Of a stretch of DNA of 64,000 nucleotides, positions 2,669-16,140 are shown in pieces. The stretch lies in contig CAZOYD010000011.1 of the NCBI GenBank assembly GCA_964583985.1, positions 1 through 64,000 of the forward strand, in the 5' to 3' direction. The translations under genes were made by a program, and so were the position numbers. The notes under the pieces were generated by a model. The model did no database searches. It worked only from the letters and a program-made list of their open reading frames with translations, and was not told the DNA's origin. Each line of letters opens with the position of its first letter. Position 1 is the stretch's first letter. This stretch comes from an uncultured archaeon (GTDB taxonomy: Archaea; Asgardarchaeota; Lokiarchaeia; Sigyniarchaeales; SOKP01).

Positions 2669-5419
2669 TTATTCTGCATACATGTATTCTTCTGATACGT
2701 TCTTCTTGCTTTTATCAAGAAAGTATGGTTCGACTATGGATGTTATTTGCTTAAAATCATAATGGAGAGGATCAATTGCTTTTAAGCGACAAACTGTCGA
2801 GCATCTTCCACATCCTTTACAGATAGCGGGATTAATGTATGCTTTCTTCGTAGAAATGCTCACATCTTCATACTCTTGTTTTAAATCGACAAGTGTGATT
2901 GCTTTAAATTGGCAAACTTCAGCACATTTCCCGCAACCATTGCACTTTTCAATATTTACTATCATATCCTTGAAAAAGCACTCAATAGAGAGGAAAACCG
3001 ACAACATCTCTAATTTTGTGGTAGATATTTCATGGAGATTTAAAAATCTGCTGGCTCTCCCCGCTGCTGCATTTGCTTCTAAAATCGAATCTTGAACATT
3101 TTTTGGCCATTGAGCACAGCCACATATAAAAATACCATGAGAAGATAAATCTAAAGGTCTTAATTTTTTATGAGCTTCAATGAAAAAGCCATTATCATCG
3201 ATATTAACTTTTAATTTTGATGCAAGATCGGGTATATCTTCAGGAGGAATCATGGGTGTAGATAAAATAACAAGATCAGTCTCAAATGTAATAATTTCTT
3301 TATTGTTAGTGATACTAGGCACTTTTATTTCATATTTCTCAGGATTGTCGTTAATTTTAGTAACATATGGAATAGTTGTCAAATCATATTTTAGATAGTC
3401 AGCGATTTTTTTTCTTTTGCTCACATATTGTTCAAATTCCTTTTTAGCCATGTGTAATTCTCTAAAAAGGACTATAATCTTTAATTCAGGCTTTAATTTT
3501 TTTAAGATATTAATGTTTTTTATGGTATTACTGCAACATATATTAGAACAATAGGAGTATCCACCCTTCTGTCGCGCATTTACGCACATTATTATTGTGA
3601 TATGTTCAATCTTATCAAGCATGTCACTTTTCCCTTCTTTTAATCGCTCTTCTAATTCTAATTGGGTTATTACTTGCTTATTTTCCTCATTATATTGAAA
3701 TAGACCTTGAGGTTTGAATTCTTTACTCCCTGTTGCTACTATAACCGTACCTACATCAAAATTAATTTCTTTTTCTTGACTGCGTATTTTTACATGATAA
3801 TTTCCCAATGACCCTTCTAGCTTCTCTATTGAAGAGTTAAGAAAGACCCTAATCTTTTCATTGTTTGATACTAGTTCGATCTTTTCCTCCATAAATTTTG
3901 ATGCTTTTTGTTGAGTTGGATAAATCAAGTTGAGATGAGTCAAATTTCCTCCTAATTTATCTTCCCTTTCAACTAAAATAGTTTCAAATCCTTGATTTCC
4001 GATGTTTATTGCGGCAGTCATTCCTGATATGCCACCTCCAATTATTAATGTTCGAGGAATAATCTTGATTAATTCTTCCTCAGGTCTGGATTCAATCTCT
4101 TTATCAACTATTTGTGTGTATCTCGCAGGGCTCAAAAATGTAGAAATTTGAGAGGCAACCCCACTCGCATTTGAAACGGTCTCAGCAATCACCATTGGAC
4201 CTTGACAAAAGCCACATAAGTACACTCCATCTTTAGTTGATAGTGATTTGTCAAAATATGAAGAGTCTTGAAAAAAACCGAATTTATCAACATTAATACC
4301 CATAATTTCAGCTAATTCTCTTGTACCACGAGAAGGGACTAAAGGTGCTGCCAGGACCACTAAATTTGCAATATAAATCTTTCCTAGTTCCCCTGTTCTT
4401 AAATCATCATATTTAACAATTATATCATGAGAGCTTGGTACTTCTTCTATGGAATTAATGTTAGAATTGAAATAGTTTATACCATAATCTAATTGAGCTT
4501 TCTTGGTATATTCATAAAAATTTTTACCAAATACCCTAATATTATGTCGAAATATAGAAACTTGTGAGTCTTGAGCATACATTTTCGTTAAAACCGCATC
4601 CTTAGTCGTATACATGCAACATGCTCTCGAGCAATAGGGAATATCGTCACCCAAATAACTGGATCCAGCGCATTGAATAAATGCGATACTTTTTGGTTCT
4701 GTCTCATCACTGGGTCTTAGAATTTGGTTTCCAAATGGTCCTGTTGGGCTAAGAATCCTTTCATATTCTAAAGCATTCACGACGTTCTTGTATTGATAAC
4801 CCCATTTCGAAGATAATCTTTGTCCTAGCATTTCATATCCCGTCGCAATCACAATTGCACCGACGTTAAATTCAATATTTTTTGGTTTTTGTTCGAAGTC
4901 AATTGCTTCATTCTTACAGACTTTTTCACAGACTCGACATACATTCCTATTAAGATAAAGACAGAGTTCTGGATCAATCATGTACACAGGAGGAATGGCT
5001 TGGGGGAATGGTATGTAAATAGATTTTCTCTTTCCCAAGTTCATATCAAATAAATTGGGGGCTTCCACCTTGGGGCATTTTGTTGCACAATCGCCGCATC
5101 CTTTACATCTTGCTTCGTTCACGAATCGTGGATTCTTTTGGATAATAACATTAAAATCTCCTGCCTTCCCTGAAACTGTTTTAACCTCAGATAATGTATA
5201 AAGATTAATATTAGGATTTCGATATATTGCAATCATTTTTGGAGCTAATACACATAAACTACAGTCGTTTGAAGGAAACAACTTGTCAAATTGTGCCATG
5301 TGCCCTCCAATATATGCTTCTTTTTCAACAAGATGAACTTTAAATCCAAGTTCAGTGAGATCTAGTGAAACTTGGATTCCGGCTATGCCACCGCCTATTA
5401 CTAAAACAGATCCTTCCAT
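2669..5419 (-). CDS. hdrA: HdrA-like flavoprotein with two FAD modules, lacking the internal CxCG domain
   Basis: Two GGG(I/V)xG FAD motifs, DCSLC, IQCAGS..CSRACC and C-terminal 2x[4Fe-4S]; close paralog of 6115..9201; start set at ATG 5419. Confidence 0.85.
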   Translation of the reverse strand: MEGSVLVIGGGIAGIQVSLDLTELGFKVHLVEKEAYIGGHMAQFDKLFPSNDCSLCVLAPKMIAIYRNPNINLYTLSEVKTVSGKAGDFNVIIQKNPRFVNEARCKGCGDCATKCPKVEAPNLFDMNLGKRKSIYIPFPQAIPPVYMIDPELCLYLNRNVCRVCEKVCKNEAIDFEQKPKNIEFNVGAIVIATGYEMLGQRLSSKWGYQYKNVVNALEYERILSPTGPFGNQILRPSDETEPKSIAFIQCAGSSYLGDDIPYCSRACCMYTTKDAVLTKMYAQDSQVSIFRHNIRVFGKNFYEYTKKAQLDYGINYFNSNINSIEEVPSSHDIIVKYDDLRTGELGKIYIANLVVLAAPLVPSRGTRELAEIMGINVDKFGFFQDSSYFDKSLSTKDGVYLCGFCQGPMVIAETVSNASGVASQISTFLSPARYTQIVDKEIESRPEEELIKIIPRTLIIGGGISGMTAAINIGNQGFETILVEREDKLGGNLTHLNLIYPTQQKASKFMEEKIELVSNNEKIRVFLNSSIEKLEGSLGNYHVKIRSQEKEINFDVGTVIVATGSKEFKPQGLFQYNEENKQVITQLELEERLKEGKSDMLDKIEHITIIMCVNARQKGGYSYCSNICCSNTIKNINILKKLKPELKIIVLFRELHMAKKEFEQYVSKRKKIADYLKYDLTTIPYVTKINDNPEKYEIKVPSITNNKEIITFETDLVILSTPMIPPEDIPDLASKLKVNIDDNGFFIEAHKKLRPLDLSSHGIFICGCAQWPKNVQDSILEANAAAGRASRFLNLHEISTTKLEMLSVFLSIECFFKDMIVNIEKCNGCGKCAEVCQFKAITLVDLKQEYEDVSISTKKAYINPAICKGCGRCSTVCRLKAIDPLHYDFKQITSIVEPYFLDKSKKNVSEEYMYAE

Positions 5420-5660
5420 AATAATAAAATACCTCAAATTATGTTTTTATAAAATAAGCTGATTCTTAACAAATCAGTCTGATATTTTCTACTATTCTAA
5501 AAATAATGATAATCGATTATATAAATATTATCCTTACAATTTGCTAAATTTTGATCATTAGTTCATGAATTATTAATTTTTTTAGACAAATATCTAATTT
5601 TTGTTAAAAAAAGTGATCATTCAAGAATAAAATAATTGATATAGAGAACCAACTTTTGTA

Positions 5661-6098
5661 TTAGAGTACTTTTAGAGGTCCTAATTCTTTAATTTCATTT
5701 GTGAATTCTGTAATTACCTCTGCGAACCTTTTGCCCTCCGAGGCGCTAATCCATTCTAACCTGATCCTTTTTTGATTTATCCCAAGTTGTTTAATTAAAA
5801 TCTCATGTAATCTTTCAAATCTTTCCTTAGCATACTCATTTCCAGTTATATAATGACAATCTCCTATATGACAACCCGTAATTATGACCCCATCGGCTCC
5901 ATCTTTTAACGCTTTTATTACAAAAGAAGGATCGACTCTTCCAGAACACATTACCCTGACAATTCGAATATTAGGAGGATATTGAAAACGAGATACACCC
6001 GCTAAATCTGCTCCAGCATAAGAACACCAATTACAACAAAATGCTAAGATTTCTGGATTAAAACCAGGAAATTTTTCCTTCGATTTAGTTTTTGACAT
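5661..6098 (-). CDS. mvhD: MvhD [2Fe-2S] subunit, cysteine form
   Basis: [40 protein letters not shown]; ATG 6098 (TTG 6113 is an alternative). Confidence 0.93.
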
Positions 6099-6114
6099 CT
6101 TTTTTCTCTCCAAG

Positions 6115-9100
6115 TTATGTTTCTAATAAAAGTGATTCAATCATTGCTGTTATTTGATCAAAATCATACTGTTTTATAGATATCGCCCCGTTTGGGCAAG
6201 TAGCTGCACATGTACCACAACCCTTGCATAATGCAGAATTGATAAACGATTTTTTCACTATAAGATTTATGTCTTCATATTCTGTTATTGAATCTAAAAG
6301 ATCAATTGCGTTGTACGGACACACTGATGCGCACTTTCCACAGCCAATACAGTTTAGTGGATTTACTTCTGCAACAATACCCGAAGTGGTAATTTCTTTA
6401 GCGCTTAAAAATCTACTGGCTCTTCCGGCAGCACCATTTGCCTGAGATATTGTATCTTGGACATTTTTTGGCCATTGGGCACAACCACAAAGAAAAATTC
6501 CTTCGGTGGCAAAATCGAGTGGTCTTAATTTAACATGAGCTTCGAGGAAAAATCCATTTTTATCTAATGGTACCTTTAACATTTTAGCTAGATCCATCAA
6601 ATTGTCGGGTGGTACCATTGGAGTGGATAAAACGATCAAATCCGTATCAAATTCCAAAAAGTCTTGAAGGTTCGTATCATAGATTTTTATCTCATACTTT
6701 TCTGGAGATTTACTCTTTCTTTTTACAATGGGTAAGTTATCCAAGTCATAACGTAAAAAAATTGCATCTTTTCTACGTTCTCGGTAATAATCTTCATATC
6801 TTTTTTTAGCCATTTGAAGATCTCGATAAAGAACGACAAGTTCAATTTCAGGTTTGAGCTTTTTTAAAAGTCCAACATTCTTGATTGAATTACCACAACA
6901 AATATTTGAACAGTAAGTTATTCCCTCATTTTGTCTGGCATTCACGCATAAAATCGTAGTAATACGTTTGATACCATCAAGCCAAGCGGTTCCTTTTTCT
7001 TTTAATAATTGTTCTAATTCAAGTTGAGTGATAACATTCTTATTTTCCTTTTTATATTGGAAAAGATCTTTAGGTTTATGCTCTATAGCTCCAGTAGCAA
7101 CTATTATCGTTCCAATACTTAATTCTTGAGTTTTATCTTTGGAAACTTCCACGGAGACGATATAATTACCCACGTATCCTTTTACTTTCTTTATTTTAGC
7201 ATTTAAGAACGTCTGAATATTCTCATTTTTCTCGATTTTTTCAATAGTCTGATTAAGAAAATCTGATGCATTTTGTTCGATCGGGTACAAATCGTTTAGA
7301 TAATTCAAATTTCCCCCAAGAACGGGTTCTTTTTCTACAATAAAAGTTTTGAATCCTTGATTGGCAAGATTTAGAGCCGCACTCATTCCTGCAACTCCGC
7401 CACCAATAATTAGTGCTGTAGGAGTGATCTTTAACAGTTCTTCATTTAGTGGTTTTAACAATCGTGCTTTAGCAACCGCCATTCTAATTAAATCTTTAGC
7501 TTTTTGTGTTGCCGCTTCCGCATCCCCCATGTGAACCCAAGAACACTGGTCTCGAATGTTGACCATCTCAAACAAATATTTATTCAAACCCGCTTCCACG
7601 CATGTTTCTTGAAATAATGGTTCATGAGTTCGTGGAGTGCACGATGCCACGATAAATCTATTTAACTTATTATTAATAATTAATTCTTTAATCCTTGCTT
7701 GGCTATCTGAGGAACATGAGTAAAGATTGTCTTCACATTGAATTACATTTGGTAAAGCTCGTACGTATTCAGCTAATAAAGGGACGTGAACATATTTACC
7801 TATATTAATTCCACAATGGCAAATAAGAACGCCTATTCTTGGTTCATCACCGTCTTTTATACCTAAGTCGGGGATTTCTATATCTTTGGCTTTTATTTGC
7901 TCAAACCTAACTGAGCTTAAGTAAGCAGCGACTTGTCCGGCTACACCACTCGAGCCTGCAACTGTTTCTGGTATGTCCATTGGACCTTGACAAAAGCCGC
8001 ATAGAAATATGCCCTCTTTTGTTGATTTTGACTTGTTAAAATAATCTTGTTCTTTAAAAAAGTTGTATTCATCTATTTCAATTCCTAATATTTCAGATAA
8101 TTGCTCGGTTCCAGATGAATGAACCAATGGAGTAGCTAAAACCACCAAGTCGGCTTCAAAATCATCAAATTCTCCCGTTTTTAAATTTTCATAATGAATT
8201 ATCAAGTTCTTCGTTTCAGCATTTTCCGCTATCTTACTAATTTTTGTTTGGAAATATTTTACCCCATATTCTTTTTGGGCTCTCTGTATAAATTCATAAA
8301 AATTCTTTCCAAAGGCACGTATATCATGTCTGAAAACGAAGCATTTTGATTTTTCTGAGTGTTCAGAAGTTATTATTGCTTCTTTAGCCGTGTACATGCA
8401 ACACACACTGGAACAATACGAGACTCCTTCGTGTAGATCTCTTGAGCCCGCACATTGAATAAACGCAATTTTCTCCGGTTCAACGTGATCAGATGGTCTT
8501 AAGACATGACCACCAAAAGGTCCCGAGGCACATAATATTCTTTCATATTCTAAAGCGCTTACAACATTCTCAAAACAATATCCCCATCTCGATGATAATT
8601 TTTCAGCGGGCATATCGAATCCAGTAGCAACCACGATTGCGCCAACGTTGATCTTTATTTCTTGTTCTACTTGTTCAAAATTAATTGCGTCCGCTTGGCA
8701 TACCTTTGCACAAACTCCACATACGCCCTTAGTCAGTTTAAGACAAATTTCAGGATCTATGAGATAAATTGGAGGAACAGCTTGAGGAAATGGTATATAA
8801 GCAGATTTTCTTTTGCCTAAATTCATATCAAATAAGTTTGGGACTTGAATTTTAGGACATTTGGCAGCACAATCTCCACAACCCTTGCATTTCGTCTCAT
8901 CAATATAGCGAGGTTTCTTAATTATTGTTGCCATAAAATCACCTGGTTTACCAGAGATTTCCTTTACCTCATGATAGGTCATTAACTCGATATTCGGGTT
9001 TCTGAACACTTCAACCATCTTGGGAGCCAATATGCATAATGAGCAATCATTTGTGGGGAAGGTTTTGTCAAGTTGAGCCATTCGACCTCCAATAGAAGGG

Positions 9101-9201
9101 TTTCTCTCCACGAGGTAAACTTTAAACCCTAATTCTGTGAGATCAAGGCTTGTTTGAATACCAGCTATACCCCCACCTATCACTAAAACGCTTCCTTGCA
9201 T
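6115..9201 (-). CDS. hdrA: Large HdrA-like protein with two FAD modules, cysteine form
   Basis: FAD module 1 (GGGIAG, TNDCSLC, ferredoxin insert), internal [13 protein letters not shown] / ASCTPRTHE / RDQCSW domain, FAD module 2, C-terminal 2x[4Fe-4S]. Confidence 0.92.
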
Positions 9202-10482: not shown

Positions 10483-11595
10483 CTAAGATATATTTTTCAT
10501 GAATCGTTCCTTTCGATTAACTTTTGATTTTGAAAATTGAGCGATAAGATTCATCATTTCTTTCTTTTTATCATCGCTAATGTCTTTTTGTCTTATTACA
10601 CCGGCGTTTAATACTTTAGTAAATAAAGCTTTTCCTTTTTTAGTTCGAGGAATAACAGTCGTATATTTTTCAGGAGAGCCTAATCCCCCAAAAGAAATGT
10701 CAGAATATATGTTCGTAAAATCAGCACAAGCATTACATGCCGCCCTCATGTATTTTTCTAAATGATTAAATGGGACATGAATTATCTTTTCTCCATTACC
10801 TTGATTTTTTAGAGTAAAAATAACATCTTCCTTGATGTTTATTTTTTTAATATCGTTAAATTTAATATTAAAATCTTTTTCGAACCTTTCAATTTGAGAT
10901 TTTTCGAAAAAGAAATTTTCATAACAAAATAATCCTAAACAAACTTCTACATTTTGTGAAGGTGTAACGCCTAAATCTTTCATGCAAGCAATTGTATATA
11001 GCTGACAGGGAGTCCCAACCACGGCCAGTTTTTTAAATTTATAATGATTTAATTTTGGAATGGAATGGGTATAAGTACAAAACTTTTGGATCTCATCCAA
11101 TTGAGGGGTAATGTCTAGTCTTACTCCCGAAGCTTTTAATAAATCATACTTGCTATCCGCATATGCAGCTTCTCTTGAAAATGGAGCCTCTGTTCTGGAA
11201 ACTACAGCACCATCAATTTGTTTACTTTCTATTAAAAAGTTAATGATTGAATTTACTACACCACCATCTGTTCCATATTCTAAGAATTCTTTATCTGTTG
11301 CCTGACAAGAATAAATATTATCGAAATTTCCTAAAGGCATGGATGTGTAATCAGAAAAATTATACGTTTTGTTTAATTCTTCATCTAAAATATGAGTTTG
11401 AGGACAAATATAATAACATATCCCACATTCCAAGCATTTATCTTTATTAATATATACTGGAGGTGAATATTGATCCTTAAATCCAATAATATTAAATTCT
11501 GCTGAGCTACAAAAACTAACACAGCCTCCACATTCTTGACAAATGCCTTTTTCATGTACTTCCTTTATTAAATCTTGAAATGATTTAGTGTTCAT
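10483..11595 (-). CDS. FrhB/FdhB-family (F420-binding-type) subunit with N-terminal ferredoxin
   Basis: CQECGGCVSFC, CLECGICYYICP, TDGGVV, VGTPCQ, GLFC, CNAC.DFT...DISFG. Confidence 0.9.
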   Translation of the reverse strand: MNTKSFQDLIKEVHEKGICQECGGCVSFCSSAEFNIIGFKDQYSPPVYINKDKCLECGICYYICPQTHILDEELNKTYNFSDYTSMPLGNFDNIYSCQATDKEFLEYGTDGGVVNSIINFLIESKQIDGAVVSRTEAPFSREAAYADSKYDLLKASGVRLDITPQLDEIQKFCTYTHSIPKLNHYKFKKLAVVGTPCQLYTIACMKDLGVTPSQNVEVCLGLFCYENFFFEKSQIERFEKDFNIKFNDIKKINIKEDVIFTLKNQGNGEKIIHVPFNHLEKYMRAACNACADFTNIYSDISFGGLGSPEKYTTVIPRTKKGKALFTKVLNAGVIRQKDISDDKKKEMMNLIAQFSKSKVNRKERFMKNIS

Positions 11596-13093
11596 CTTTA
11601 TTCTCTTTCAAATTTATTGTTTTACAACTTGTTCGTTTAGTTCCGCCTATTCTTTCTACTAAAAATAGTCCGGGCTTTACATCTTTTAAACTCTGGGATT
11701 CGATTAATCCTGCTTTAATTATTTCATTATATAATTTATCAGCTTCTTTCGATCTCGTTAATACAGAAGACCATCCATCTTGCGACCCAATCGATCCTAC
11801 AGAAATATCGGCATAATCCGAAGTCAAATCTTCACAAAAATGACAATTATGACGAGCATAGCTCTTGACATCATTTAAAGGAACGTCTAATTGTTCGCCA
11901 GATTTTATTTTAATGATGAATTTACCGCCCCCGATGTTCATTTTTGTCAATTCATTCACATCTTTATCAAATTTCTCTTTTGCTAACTTTACAATTCCAT
12001 CGTAAGGAAATGCTTCCATGCAAAATAAACCGATCTTGTATTTAATATTTTTAAAAAAGGGTAAACCACTTGGATACAGCATTCCTTTTCCCAGAGCTTT
12101 CATCATACAAGGTACTCCAATAAACGCAATTCGTTCATATTTTGTTGCTTGATCAATAATTTTCAAAGAAGGTGAATTGGCGTATTTTGTACCTCCCGTT
12201 TTATATAAATCTTTTACATCATCAATGATGACAGGTTCAGGCTTCCATAATTCTTTTGAATGCTGTACTGCAACAATGGCATCTACTAATTTGTTCTTCA
12301 GCAAATATTCGGCGATTGTCGTTACTACGCCTCCATCTTGTCGTACTTTTACAATGTCTTCATTTGTAGTGCTTCCAGTATAAGCGTTAAAATATGCTCC
12401 AATTTTATCTGACCAATTCAAATCTTTATCTAATTTCTTGATTGCTTCATTAGCTTGGTCAATAGAAAAGGAACGGGGACAAACACTAAAACACAAGCCA
12501 CACTTCATGCAAGTTTCATCATCTATATTTAAAGTATCAGCATCAACTGTAATTGCATTTACAGGACATATAGCAGAACACCATCCACATTGACAACAAA
12601 CACCCGCATCAAACACGATTGAAACGGGTTCAAAATAACTCTCCAAAAAATCATTTGGTAACTCTTTCGCTTGATAGCGATAAAAATATTCCTTGACTTC
12701 GACTTGCTTCTCTTCGCCTTTTATCTTTTTAGTGACCATTTTTGTTTTGACTTCAATCTGCTCCTCTACATACCCCTGTTCTTTCAAGTAGATTACATCA
12801 CGAATGACATTTTTGGCGGGAAATTGGGTAATTTCAGCTGCAATTTCTGAAAGGAATAATGGATTTTTCCCATGAAGTTTTTCAAGCACAATTTTCCGTT
12901 CTGTTTCAGCATCAATCATAGCATCTAAAATTTCATAAAATTCGTTTTCAGAATATTTTCCCGTCTTCAAAATTTCATCCTTTGCTTCAAAAAATGCTCT
13001 TACTTGAAAATTTGCAGAAGCAGCATAGGTTGCTTCCATCAATTCTTTAAGAGATATATCTCCAAAATTGTTGTTCTTTTCTATTGAGACCAT
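11585..13093 (-). CDS. FrhB/FdhB-family subunit with ~150-aa N-terminal helical/winged-helix-like extension
   Basis: CCQCGWCSAICP, CMKCGLCFSVCP, QDGGVVT, GTKY, GVPC, GLFCME, CHFCED...DISVG; ATG 13093. Confidence 0.9.
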   Translation of the reverse strand: MVSIEKNNNFGDISLKELMEATYAASANFQVRAFFEAKDEILKTGKYSENEFYEILDAMIDAETERKIVLEKLHGKNPLFLSEIAAEITQFPAKNVIRDVIYLKEQGYVEEQIEVKTKMVTKKIKGEEKQVEVKEYFYRYQAKELPNDFLESYFEPVSIVFDAGVCCQCGWCSAICPVNAITVDADTLNIDDETCMKCGLCFSVCPRSFSIDQANEAIKKLDKDLNWSDKIGAYFNAYTGSTTNEDIVKVRQDGGVVTTIAEYLLKNKLVDAIVAVQHSKELWKPEPVIIDDVKDLYKTGGTKYANSPSLKIIDQATKYERIAFIGVPCMMKALGKGMLYPSGLPFFKNIKYKIGLFCMEAFPYDGIVKLAKEKFDKDVNELTKMNIGGGKFIIKIKSGEQLDVPLNDVKSYARHNCHFCEDLTSDYADISVGSIGSQDGWSSVLTRSKEADKLYNEIIKAGLIESQSLKDVKPGLFLVERIGGTKRTSCKTINLKENKDEH

Positions 13094-13131
13094 GTTTTTC
13101 AAATCTTTTTTTTATTTTAAATTAAACAATA

Positions 13132-13209
13132 TAAAACCCCATCCTTGCGAGGACACGTCATCCTATAACTAATATTTTTTTATAGGATTCATTCTATGGA
13201 GTTGTTTTA
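13132..13209 (-). promoter_or_regulatory. Eukaryote-type (AUGA/GA) SECIS element
   Basis: Minus strand reads TAG-A-ATGAA-TCCTATAA-AAAAATATTAG-TTATAGGA-TGAC: AUGA..GA core (13192-13189 / 13160-13157), perfect 8-bp upper stem, A-rich loop; directly 3' of two genes with in-frame TGA. Confidence 0.85.
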
Positions 13210-13643
13210 ACCTTGGTTTTTGATAATTTTAAACCCTGAGTACTTATCGGATTGGGACCTAAACGTTGGATTTTTTCAAAAGCGTCTTCAACACTTTTAA
13301 CTAATTTCTCTGATTCTGCGCTACTACACCAATACATATTAATCCTTTGATTGCCAAAACCTCTTTTTTCTAAGATATGATTCGCAAACTCAACATGTTT
13401 TTGAGCGGTAAAATTTCCGACCTTAAATTGGCATTCATCTGGTCTTCATCCGACAACCATCACGCCATCAGCGCCATGGTTTATAGAATGAAGCATGTAT
13501 TTGACGTCCACCCTTCCAGTACATCTCACTTTTATAATTTTTACTGATGGGGTATATTTCATTCGAGAGACGCCAGCTAAATCGGCTGCTCCGTAACCTC
13601 ATTTAAGACATGCAAACATTATGATCTTGTATTTGTGTTCCAT
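13194..13643 (-). CDS. mvhD: Selenocysteine-containing MvhD/VhuD (149 aa; Sec15, Sec66); absent from the ORF track
   Basis: [27 protein letters not shown]...VRCTGRVD...GADGVMVVG-U-RPDECQF...WCSSAES...KTTP*; TGAs at 13599-13601 and 13446-13448 align with Cys of the 5661..6098 paralog; GGAGGT SD upstream. Confidence 0.93.
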
Positions 13644-13648
13644 CTTGT

Positions 13649-15592
13649 TTAACCTCCTTCCAATATTCCATTAATTTCAGCAAATAATTGATCATCCCGA
13701 TAATATCGAATATCGATTGCTTGTGTCGGGCAGCATGTTGCACAAATTCCACATCCATCGCAATTTATCTCATCCACGACAGCACCTATAGATTCAACGA
13801 CTTTAATCGCTCCTTTTGGGCATTCCTTTTCACAACGGTTACATGATATGCAGAATTCCTTTGTAACTTCCGCTACAATTAATTCCAAATCTATTTCTCC
13901 AGCAGAGGTTAACTCTGCAACCTTACTTGCTGCAGCTCTAGCTTGAGAAACGGAATAAGCTATATCTTTTGGTCCTTGAGCGAATCCTGCGATAAAAATC
14001 CCTTTTGTTTTCGTTTCTTGTGGCATTAATCCGAAATGAGATTCTGTTAAAAAGCCGTTTTTATCAGTATCCAAATTGAGAATCTTAGCAATTTGTTGAG
14101 TTCCTTTTGATGGCAATGCTGCAGTAGAAAGAATGACTAAATCGGCGTTAATTTTAATGATTTCATCAGTTAATGATGAATACACCCGAATTTTTACATC
14201 CTTCGTCTCGGGATCTTCAGAAAATTCACCTACTTTTCCGCGAATCATGCGAATGTCAGAATTCTTAGCTCGTTGATAGTATTCTTCAAATCCCTTTTCA
14301 TTCGTTCTGATATCAATATAACATATCGTGATGTTTGCATCCGGAAACTCTTCCTTGAGTAATTTTCCATTTTTAAGCGCTAACATGCAACAAACACCTG
14401 AACAATAGGTACGCTCCGTTTCCCTACTCCCTACGCACTGTATAAACACGATTTCTTTAGGTATCTTTCCATCCGATATTCTACTGACATGACCATCAAG
14501 AGGTCCATTTGGTGCAAGTATTCTTTCCAACTGAGCTTGTGTTATGACGTTTTCGAATTCTCCATAACCATATTCCCCGAAGGGCTCATATATGTCCCAA
14601 CCAGTGGCAATGATTATCGTGCCTACTTTAAAATTTACCTCCTCCGGAATTTGGCTGAAATCAATGGCATGCAATTCGCAAGCTTCAACACAATTGAAAC
14701 ATTCAACACAAGTTTCACGGTTAATATCATAAAGAAATGGGACCGCTTGTCCAAATGAAATATCTATTGTTTTCCGAGCGCCTAAATATTCATCAAAGAA
14801 ATTTGTTGTGTAGGTGGGGCACATTTCTGAACAAGCTCCGCAGCCATTACATTTTTCAGGATCGACGAATCTTGGTTTTTTCTCGACCGTTATCTCGTAA
14901 TTACCCACATATCCCTCAACGCTTTTCACTTCACTATAGCTTAAGATCTCTATGTTTTCATGGCGATTCACATCCAGCATTTTCGGTCCACAAATTCAAA
15001 TGCTACAATCATCTGTTGGGAAGGTTCGGTCCAATTGTGCCATTCTTCCTCCAATAGTTGATTTTTGCTCAACCAAATAGACTTTAATTCCTTGGTTTGC
15101 TAAATCTAACGCAGCATTCATACCAGCAATGCCTCCACCAACCACCAGAGTCGCTTTTTCAACCGGCACGGTTTTGATGGGAATTACTTCTAATCGTCTT
15201 ACTCGTTCAAGCCCACCCTTTATAAGAATTTGTGCCTTTTCAAGAGCGTCCTCATTATTTTCAGTACACCAACTACATTGCTCACGTACATTAACCATTT
15301 GGAAAAAATATGGGCTTAAGCTAGTCTGCTTTATAGACCCCCGATATACTGGTTCATGAGTTCGAGGGGTTCAAGCAGAAGCGATAATTCGATCCAGCTT
15401 TTTTTCCTCGATATCTTTTATTATCTCATTTTGACCGCTTTCAGTACATAAGAATGCATGAGTCTTTGCTACGACCACGTCATCAAATTGTTTTGCGTAT
15501 TCCACTAATTTATTGCAATCAACTTTACTTCGTATATTTATACCTCACTGACATGCATAGTATCCAATCCGATGCTTTTGGGTTTCTTCCAT
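13649..15592 (-). CDS. hdrA: Selenocysteine-containing heterodisulfide reductase subunit A (647 aa; Sec16, Sec74, Sec199)
   Basis: One frame from ATG 15592 to TAA 13649 with TGA at 15545-47 (ACQ-U-GINI), 15371-73 (SA-U-TPRTHE) and 14996-98 (DCSI-U-ICGPK); joins track ORFs 14996..15298 and 13649..14980; GAGGTGA SD upstream. Confidence 0.93.
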
Positions 15593-16140
15593 CCTTTTTT
15601 CACACTCACCTCTAATTTCTACAAAACTGTATTTTTTTTAATTTAATTATTCAAAAAATAATACTCTCAATCCTCCAAACTCAACATCAATAGTTTCGAA
15701 ATCTATTAATTTTTGAATATTTATTTTACTTTTACTTTGACTTTAAATCTATTTATATTTATATATTTATCGCATTGACCGATATTAATAATTCTTGACA
15801 ATTTAATTATCAAATTAGCAATTTTAATTCATATTGAAAAAAAAATGTTGATTTGTTAAGGAAAATAATAGAAAAAGGATTAAAAATTATGGGGTTTCCA
15901 AATTAAATTTTAATAATTAAATAATTCTTGCTGGAATAGGAAATTATTAAAATTTTTTAAATGCTTATTCTATAAATATCGAGATGTAATTGTGAAAAAA
16001 CGTTATGATTTTTCATATTGAATCAAAAATGAGTCAATATGGTTTTTTATTTTAATGGAAAGAACAGAAAAAATTTTTATAAGTTAAAGTTCTATAAGGT
16101 AAATAATTAACAAATATAATAGCATTCTTAGATTTCAGAT

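Follow-up and report, generated by a model that had tools for sequence, protein, structure and literature searches.

Five in-frame UGA codons in an adjoining hdrA-mvhD gene pair and a single downstream lokiSECIS element in a Sigyniarchaeales genome

The stretch of DNA considered here (the window) comprises the first 64,000 nucleotides (nt) of contig CAZOYD010000011.1 in GenBank assembly GCA_964583985.1, from an uncultured archaeon of the Sigyniarchaeales (Asgardarchaeota, Lokiarchaeia). On its minus strand lie two adjoining genes, hdrA and mvhD (the latter also named vhuD), which contain five in-frame TGA codons and are open throughout when these are read as selenocysteine (Sec, U), and directly after mvhD stands a hairpin of the lokiSECIS type, a form of the selenocysteine insertion sequence (SECIS) defined by Mariotti et al. 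(2016) (Table 1). A first-pass annotation of this DNA had described both frames, listing each TGA by the lowest coordinate of its codon, had placed the genes 5 nt apart, and had noted a SECIS-type hairpin after mvhD, some 2.35 kb from the first UGA. All of this agrees with what we find: the TAA stop of hdrA (13651-13649) and the ATG of mvhD (13643) leave a gap of 5 nt, and the hairpin, at 13192-13158, is 2355 nt from the first UGA. The other hdrA UGAs lie 2181 and 1806 nt from the element, and those of mvhD 409 and 256 nt. A GGAGG motif sits 9 nt upstream of the mvhD ATG and probably acts as the ribosome-binding signal of that gene.

Table 1. Features of the hdrA-mvhD locus and of the Sec machinery. 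Positions are those of the window, except where contig C27 of the same genome is named; MFE, minimum free energy.
Feature	Position	Strand	Description and basis
hdrA	13649..15592	minus	647 codons and TAA stop; open with TGA read as U; product a heterodisulfide-reductase subunit A-type flavo-iron-sulfur protein with Sec16, Sec74 and Sec199
UGA, Sec16	15545..15547	minus	hdrA; motif C-Q-U; U in 22/22 orthologues
hdrA codon 49	15445..15447	minus	Cys in 6 orthologues including this one, Sec in 16
UGA, Sec74	15371..15373	minus	hdrA; motif A-U-T-P; U in 22/22 orthologues
UGA, Sec199	14996..14998	minus	hdrA; motif D-C-S-I-U, the canonical HdrA Sec position; U in 22/22 orthologues
GGAGG	13653..13657	minus	Shine-Dalgarno-like motif for mvhD, read from the sequence; in the last hdrA codons
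mvhD/vhuD	13194..13643	minus	149 codons and TAG stop; Sec15 and Sec66; open with TGA read as U
UGA, Sec15	13599..13601	minus	mvhD; motif C-L-K-U; U in all orthologues
UGA, Sec66	13446..13448	minus	mvhD; motif V-G-U-R; U in all full-length orthologues
lokiSECIS core	13158..13192	minus	sequence and pattern scan; starts 2 nt after the mvhD TAG
AUGA of core	13192-13189		
9-bp stem of core	13188-13180 with 13168-13160		
Loop of core	13179-13169		11 nt, AAAAAUAUUAG
GA of core	13159-13158		
Extended SECIS fold (predicted)	13135..13203	minus	three-way junction; unconstrained MFE fold, covariation
Helix I	13203-13198 with 13140-13135		AACUCC (last mvhD codons) pairs with GGGGUU
G-C pair	13194, 13157		G13194 (last base of the UAG stop, two bases before AUGA) faces C13157 (after GA)
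Side hairpin	13154-13141		loop CGCA; between GA and the helix I 3' strand
TATA-like motif	13128..13135	minus	TTTATATT; directly after the helix I 3' strand, 35 nt before the frhB-like ATG
FrhB-family gene	11585..13093	minus	about 100 nt after mvhD; Pfam FrhB_FdhB_N/C
tRNA-Sec	C27:19492-19584		71 nt upstream of SepSecS
SepSecS	C27:19656-20957		466.7 bits
SelB-like factor	C27:14433-15320	minus	232.6 bits, profile 1-293/581; about 4 kb from tRNA-Sec/SepSecS

Residues 8-645 of HdrA align to the solved HdrA chains 9sfi_A (E 1e-202) and 5odc_A (E 1.5e-194), and the likeness runs the full length of the protein, through an N-terminal MvhD-like Fe-S domain, a thioredoxin-reductase-like domain for flavin adenine dinucleotide (FAD), and inserted and C-terminal ferredoxin domains. 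Its Pfam domains are Pyr_redox_2 and NAD_binding_8 (FAD/NAD Rossmann) and Fer4 (4Fe-4S). MvhD belongs to Pfam PF02662 (FlpD), which it matches over positions 1-123/123 of the profile at E 4e-43 and 146.8 bits against a gathering cut-off of 22.3, and it matches the VhuD chain 9sfi_K at E 2e-38. Together the two proteins are a flavin-based electron-bifurcating module. Under translation table 11 the region breaks into fragments, and the earlier statement that standard gene callers lose mvhD is borne out by the public calls of the Joint Genome Institute (JGI), in which mvhD is a 47-amino acid (aa) open reading frame (ORF) without a Pfam match and hdrA is split into pieces of 44, 100 and 443 aa.

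The five TGAs fall on cysteines of paralogues in the same cluster, as the first-pass annotation had claimed, namely those of CHC, SCTP and DCSLC in the ORF 9201..6115 and of CNWC and GCH in the ORF 6053..5676. The N-terminal Fe-S domain of HdrA contains both Sec16 and Sec74. The counterpart of Sec16 in the alignments is the second Cys of C-Y-C in 9sfi_A and of CHC, CNC and similar motifs in the Cys paralogues, and that of Sec74 is the Cys of A-C-T-P in 9sfi_A and in the paralogues. Sec199 aligns with the residue given as X (Sec197) in Methanococcus maripaludis HdrA 9sfi_A, a selenocysteine that sits between FAD and an Fe-S cluster (PMC13518236). In MvhD, Sec15 aligns with an X of the M. maripaludis VhuD 9sfi_K and with a Cys of the MvhD chain 9sw2_D, Sec66 aligns with the second X of 9sfi_K, and both Sec/Cys sites of methanococcal VhuD are thus occupied by U15 and U66.

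Further supporting a role of these codons in recoding, they are kept in related genomes. Among 40 such genomes, orthologues were found in 21 congeneric ones (79-91% identical), giving a set of 22 with the present locus. Each carries three to five TGAs in hdrA and two in mvhD, at the same codons, so that the TGA/Cys comparison proposed earlier for Asgard relatives comes out in favour of conservation. Codon 49 of hdrA, U in 16 orthologues and C in 6, has evidently switched between Sec and Cys recently, inside a single genus. In 22/22 orthologues hdrA ends with TAA or TAG, and in 12/21 the mvhD stop is the UGA embedded in the AUGA motif of the SECIS. TGA is also a normal stop elsewhere, closing 6/39 long ORFs in the window.

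One orthologue (locus L033, on contig C5 of genome G012) has five Sec codons in HdrA (16, 49, 74, 199 and 300) and two in MvhD, or seven UGAs per SECIS. Its Sec300 takes the place of the third Cys in a CxxCxxC ferredoxin motif, and this would imply a Sec-ligated 4Fe-4S cluster. In the genome studied here, hdrA and mvhD occur as four Sec-type pairs, alongside several pairs of the Cys type. Within the window, two Cys-type HdrA-like proteins on the minus strand (9201..6115 and 5419..2669, in the region 2669-9201) have a permuted domain order, with the FAD domain first and the MvhD-like CHC/SCTP domain near residue 460-520, and a Cys-type mvhD lies at 6053..5676. The presence of Sec and Cys isoforms in one cluster is reminiscent of the Vhu/Vhc switch of Methanococcus.

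The lokiSECIS core has all the parts named in the definition of Mariotti et al. (2016), with AUGA before the stem, a 9-bp stem, an 11-nt loop and GA. The stem is perfectly paired over its 9 bp, and the loop also conforms, its first five bases being A-rich and its last base a G that follows an A. A core covariance model (R1) was built from 24 elements, among which all nine stem pairs show compensatory double changes. When run with filters off on both strands of the window, it gave one match, at this locus, of 59.9 bits (E 4e-11), the next best scoring 12.6 bits. The Rfam SECIS families gave no match at gathering scores in the whole window or at E<=10 in the interval 12800-15900, nor did any other Rfam family. 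The earlier label 'eukaryote-type' therefore holds as a resemblance and does not hold as membership of a described SECIS family.

The genome also contains the Sec pathway, as had been proposed for checking, with tRNA-Sec, SepSecS, PSTK (158 bits, full-length match), a SelB-like factor and SelD, the last of which itself carries one in-frame TGA. The tRNA-Sec, SepSecS and SelB-like genes are clustered on C27:14433-20957.

We suggest, with a probability of roughly 85%, that hdrA and mvhD are true selenoprotein genes, co-transcribed and served by one shared lokiSECIS. One bicistronic or longer mRNA would carry the element, beginning 2 nt after the mvhD stop, and the SECIS would recruit, in the archaeal and eukaryotic mode, a Sec-specific elongation factor (the SelB/EFSec homologue on C27) loaded with Sec-tRNASec. 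This factor would be delivered to any ribosome pausing at a UGA sufficiently far upstream on the same mRNA. Since its action would extend to the mRNA as a whole instead of a single frame, the SECIS could serve the three UGAs of hdrA together with the two of mvhD, and neither the hdrA stop nor re-initiation at the GGAGG and ATG of mvhD would be an obstacle. That the hdrA stop is never UGA, while mvhD frequently ends at the UGA of AUGA, fits a SECIS that recodes distant UGAs and lets adjacent ones terminate, a pattern noted by Mariotti et al. (PMC4989117). The first-pass annotation had arrived at one SECIS for both cistrons, and its interpretation is supported in that only one lokiSECIS is detectable in the window; as a new inference it does not stand, the shared-SECIS phenomenon having been known since 2016 and the locus being ordinary for its lineage.

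Several points weigh against this interpretation. Model R1 detects elements of the lokiSECIS type only, and another kind of signal inside hdrA or in the 550-nt region upstream of it would escape. The scores of PSTK and of the SelB-like factor are under the curated NCBIfam cut-offs. In a more distant relative of another family (genome G030, locus L040) hdrA has its own SECIS, and sharing is thus not universal. The two genes are most likely transcribed together, and we infer this, as well as Sec insertion itself, from the DNA; we likewise infer the identity of the SECIS-binding factor. Finally, given the TATA-like motif and the conserved frhB-like gene downstream, the transcript may end near the SECIS or continue beyond it. 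The frhB-like gene holds the same position in all orthologous loci (tblastn matches in 20 loci), and with the TATA-like motif between it and mvhD the SECIS may be intercistronic and not part of a terminal 3' untranslated region (UTR). Neither hdrB nor hdrC adjoins hdrA, FrhB-like genes coming next instead, and no hydrogenase genes flank the hdrA-mvhD locus.

The arrangement at L040 (contig C209 of G030) bears on the chief alternative. There a SECIS with the three-way fold described below stands right after hdrA, at 3494-3570, mvhD follows about 700 nt on, and a second SECIS lies at 4572-4645; this is an exception to the published rule of one shared SECIS per tandem, and may represent the ancestral state. 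By analogy, hdrA in our locus might have a hidden signal of its own, a SECIS of another type in the coding region or the 5' UTR, leaving the element after mvhD to serve mvhD alone. A 5' UTR SECIS has been documented once in methanogens (as cited in PMC4989117), and a loose pattern scan, which returned 405 matches genome-wide, did place one inside hdrA at 14248-14214. That match, however, contains one mismatch and three G-U pairs and was not retrieved by the covariance model in the window at E<=10, and we rejected it. A loose match in an acyl-CoA-dehydrogenase-like ORF on contig C37 was rejected as well, the model giving no match there in a genome search at E<=1; both lack an A-rich loop ending in AG, a lower helix and a side hairpin. 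Upstream of hdrA, a match of model R2 at 15924-15973 is weak (14 bits, E 0.73), AT-rich and without AUGA, and was likewise set aside. An element between the genes would not fit into 5 nt, Rfam has no match at the locus, and the RNAz screen of Mariotti et al. found none either (PMC4989117). We therefore regard a separate hdrA signal as improbable.

The remaining alternatives deny that the hdrA UGAs encode Sec. The UGAs might terminate translation, making hdrA a pseudogene or a set of fragments and leaving only the Cys paralogues functional, as the presence of Cys-type hdrA and mvhD in the same window and the fragments returned by gene callers would allow. The frame, however, is open and HdrA-homologous across all three UGAs (E 1e-202) without other stops or frameshifts, it is kept whole with the same UGAs in the 21 genomes at 79-91% identity, and Sec199 is an established Sec site of methanococcal HdrA; we consider this explanation very improbable. 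Stop-codon recoding has reportedly been found in some Asgard lineages, and the TGAs might accordingly reflect genome-wide reassignment to a standard amino acid, or else errors of assembly. This is the least probable reading of all, given that the same codons recur in 21 independently assembled genomes and in two JGI metagenome contigs, that TGA ends 6/39 long window ORFs and 12/21 mvhD orthologues, that in-frame TGAs occur on Cys positions only, and that the Sec pathway is complete. Because of the Cys/Sec equivalence, the conservation among orthologues, the Sec machinery and the use of TGA as a normal stop, assembly error, pseudogenisation and genome-wide recoding are excluded for practical purposes, and co-transcribed selenoprotein genes with a shared lokiSECIS remain the preferred explanation.

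The 35-nt core is also one part of a larger conserved structure. Here, and likewise in the majority of the orthologues and paralogues, unconstrained MFE folding gives a three-way junction in which the core forms the apical arm, a lower helix (helix I) joins the end of mvhD to the sequence beyond the element, and a side hairpin is inserted between. Helix I differs wholly in sequence between gene classes yet stays complementary, examples being ACUCC/GGGGU, CUCUC/GAGAG, GUUGGCUU/AAGCUAAC, AAUCCGAAG/UUUCGGAUU and CCACCAC/GUGGUGG. In a composition-preserving shuffle test of 40 clusters, 14 were individually below 0.05 and the combined Fisher p was 8e-13, a value that overstates independence as the clusters are related to one another. 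In an alignment of 88 elements (A5), which was guided by the model so that the fitting favours the structure, helix I is 95.7% paired with double changes at 5/5 pairs and the side hairpin is 87.3% paired, and sliding the helix partner columns by 1-3 positions as a control lowers pairing to 38-50%. The G-C pair is invariant (82/82 elements), and the side-hairpin loop retains a GC(A) motif. We relied on the shuffle test and the model-based alignment in place of a flank-swap energy test, whose 11 coarse clusters gave it too little power (Wilcoxon p 0.087). A second helix proposed by MAFFT and RNAalifold was discarded, the flanks being out of register.

The extended model (R3) scores 82.5 bits at this locus. 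Its full-length matches cover 24/24 genomes of the family (six genera), 5/5 of a second family and 1/3 of a further one (f15). In the second family the same junction is formed, with helix I CUGCUGC/GCGGCAG, by the element downstream of a Sec-MvhD, and G030, of a third family, also shows the three-way fold. The fold thus recurs, with unrelated helix sequences, after hdrA-mvhD pairs, vhuU and small-selenoprotein genes, and does so in no fewer than three Asgard families. Neither Mariotti et al. (2016) nor Huang et al. (2024) mention in their main texts a lower helix or side hairpin for the lokiSECIS; the generic SECIS model of Huang et al. allows a 'lower stem' and an 'internal loop' (PMC11227280). 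Taking these features jointly, we think it conceivable, at somewhat less than even odds, that the functional unit through which one signal would serve five to seven UGAs in two cistrons is not the published 35-nt stem-loop but an element of about 70 nt that resembles a k-junction and comprises the lower helix, the invariant G-C pair, the 9-bp arm on its AUGA/GA core, and the GCA-loop side hairpin. If the extended fold is required, it would define a binding surface for an archaeal SECIS-binding factor, and an element like helix I would predate eukaryotes.

The genome contains six or seven elements of the lokiSECIS type. Four follow hdrA-mvhD pairs, one follows vhuU, one a small ORF on contig C52, and the last is a weaker GUGA variant on contig C7. 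The vhuU gene encodes a small [NiFe]-hydrogenase subunit with one Sec (C43:2152-2335, locus L049) and is preceded by vhuG and vhuA. The gene terminates at the UGA within the AUGA of its SECIS, as has been reported for the Lokiarchaeota VhuU.1. The GUGA-type element on C7 (63424-63501, minus strand) has a helix I of AUAGCC/GGCUAU and a side hairpin and is scored at 43 bits by the extended model. Upstream of it there is no evident selenoprotein ORF, only a small CxxC...CxxC ORF with a UGA-UAA end about 50 nt before the element.

The small ORF on C52 (7962-8159, plus strand, equivalent to L050:1963-2163) belongs to a set of single-pass membrane proteins of 61-68 aa with an invariant G-G-G-U-x-C motif after the helix. 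In each copy a lokiSECIS follows the gene directly (here C52:8163-8197), and the protein is found in 13/24 genomes of the genus, each time with a single in-frame TGA in its gene. A search among 5.8 billion proteins returned no homologue beyond a truncated 47-aa call from this same genome, Pfam gave only a meaningless sub-threshold match, and the selenoprotein families named in Mariotti et al. (2016) or Huang et al. (2024) do not include it. To judge by these sequences, the GGGUxC proteins may constitute a new selenoprotein family.

As automated annotation breaks hdrA and mvhD, the energy metabolism of Asgard metagenome-assembled genomes is systematically under-called. The phenomenon itself has been in print since 2016, so the locus opens no new question. 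What may add to the literature is the covariation-backed extended SECIS fold, the candidate GGGUxC family and the side observations given above; the extended fold also defines a construct that could be taken into reporter, probing and protein-binding assays.

Among known systems, the eukaryotic type I SECIS and selenoprotein P share with our element an AUGA...GA core expected to form a kink-turn, an A-rich apical loop, a lower helix, a position downstream of the coding region, and a reach of kilobases over several UGAs. They differ in that the upper stem is 9 bp here and about 12-14 bp in eukaryotes, that a side hairpin is inserted 3' here, and that our element has no Rfam match, overlaps coding sequence, begins 2 nt after a stop and would serve two cistrons, whereas selenoprotein P has two SECIS elements. 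No SBP2 is known in Lokiarchaeota (PMC4989117). The predicted extended fold may in addition resemble the k-junction, a three-way junction built on a k-turn, of the thiamine pyrophosphate (TPP) riboswitch (Wang et al., 2014; PMC4005666). At the level of secondary structure it has a tandem G-A/A-G core that follows a 3-nt loop and an invariant G-C pair, as well as a third helix, inserted on the strand without the bulge and joined by a linker of 0-4 nt to the 3' strand of the lower helix, so that coaxial stacking would be possible. Several unpaired nucleotides separate helix I from the G-C pair here, unlike in the k-junction; the features of secondary structure that fit (G-C in 82/82, an R-A-U loop, GA/GA) come from sequence and covariation.

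The Hdr-Vhu system of Methanococcales (9sfi, 5odc; PMC13518236) is built from orthologous proteins. Sec199 corresponds to Sec197, both MvhD Sec positions are identical, hdrA and vhuD are syntenic, and Cys isoforms occur in the same organism. HdrA there has one Sec, in contrast to three here, with Cys at positions 16 and 74; the SECIS is there of the archaeal GAA_A-bulge type; and hydrogenase genes do not flank our locus, where FrhB-like genes stand instead.

The closest parallel is provided by Lokiarchaeota themselves, in which multi-Sec HdrA and two-Sec VhuD are always encoded in tandem, with minimal spacing (Mariotti et al., 2016; PMC4989117), and one SECIS common to both genes serves as many as six UGAs across some 2 kb (PMC4989117; repeated by Huang et al., 2024, PMC11227280). 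Our locus has the same multi-Sec HdrA, including the canonical position near residue 200, the same two-Sec VhuD directly downstream on the same strand across a tiny gap, an HdrA stop that is never UGA, and a single AUGA/9-bp/11-nt/GA element right after VhuD, with UGAs spanning about 2 kb. Nothing essential is different; small additions are the seven UGAs of the G012 orthologue as against the published 'up to six', and the extended three-way fold around the core. The locus thus illustrates, cleanly and with good conservation, the most extreme SECIS reach known in prokaryotes, in which one element would serve two cistrons and five UGAs, and seven in a sister species.

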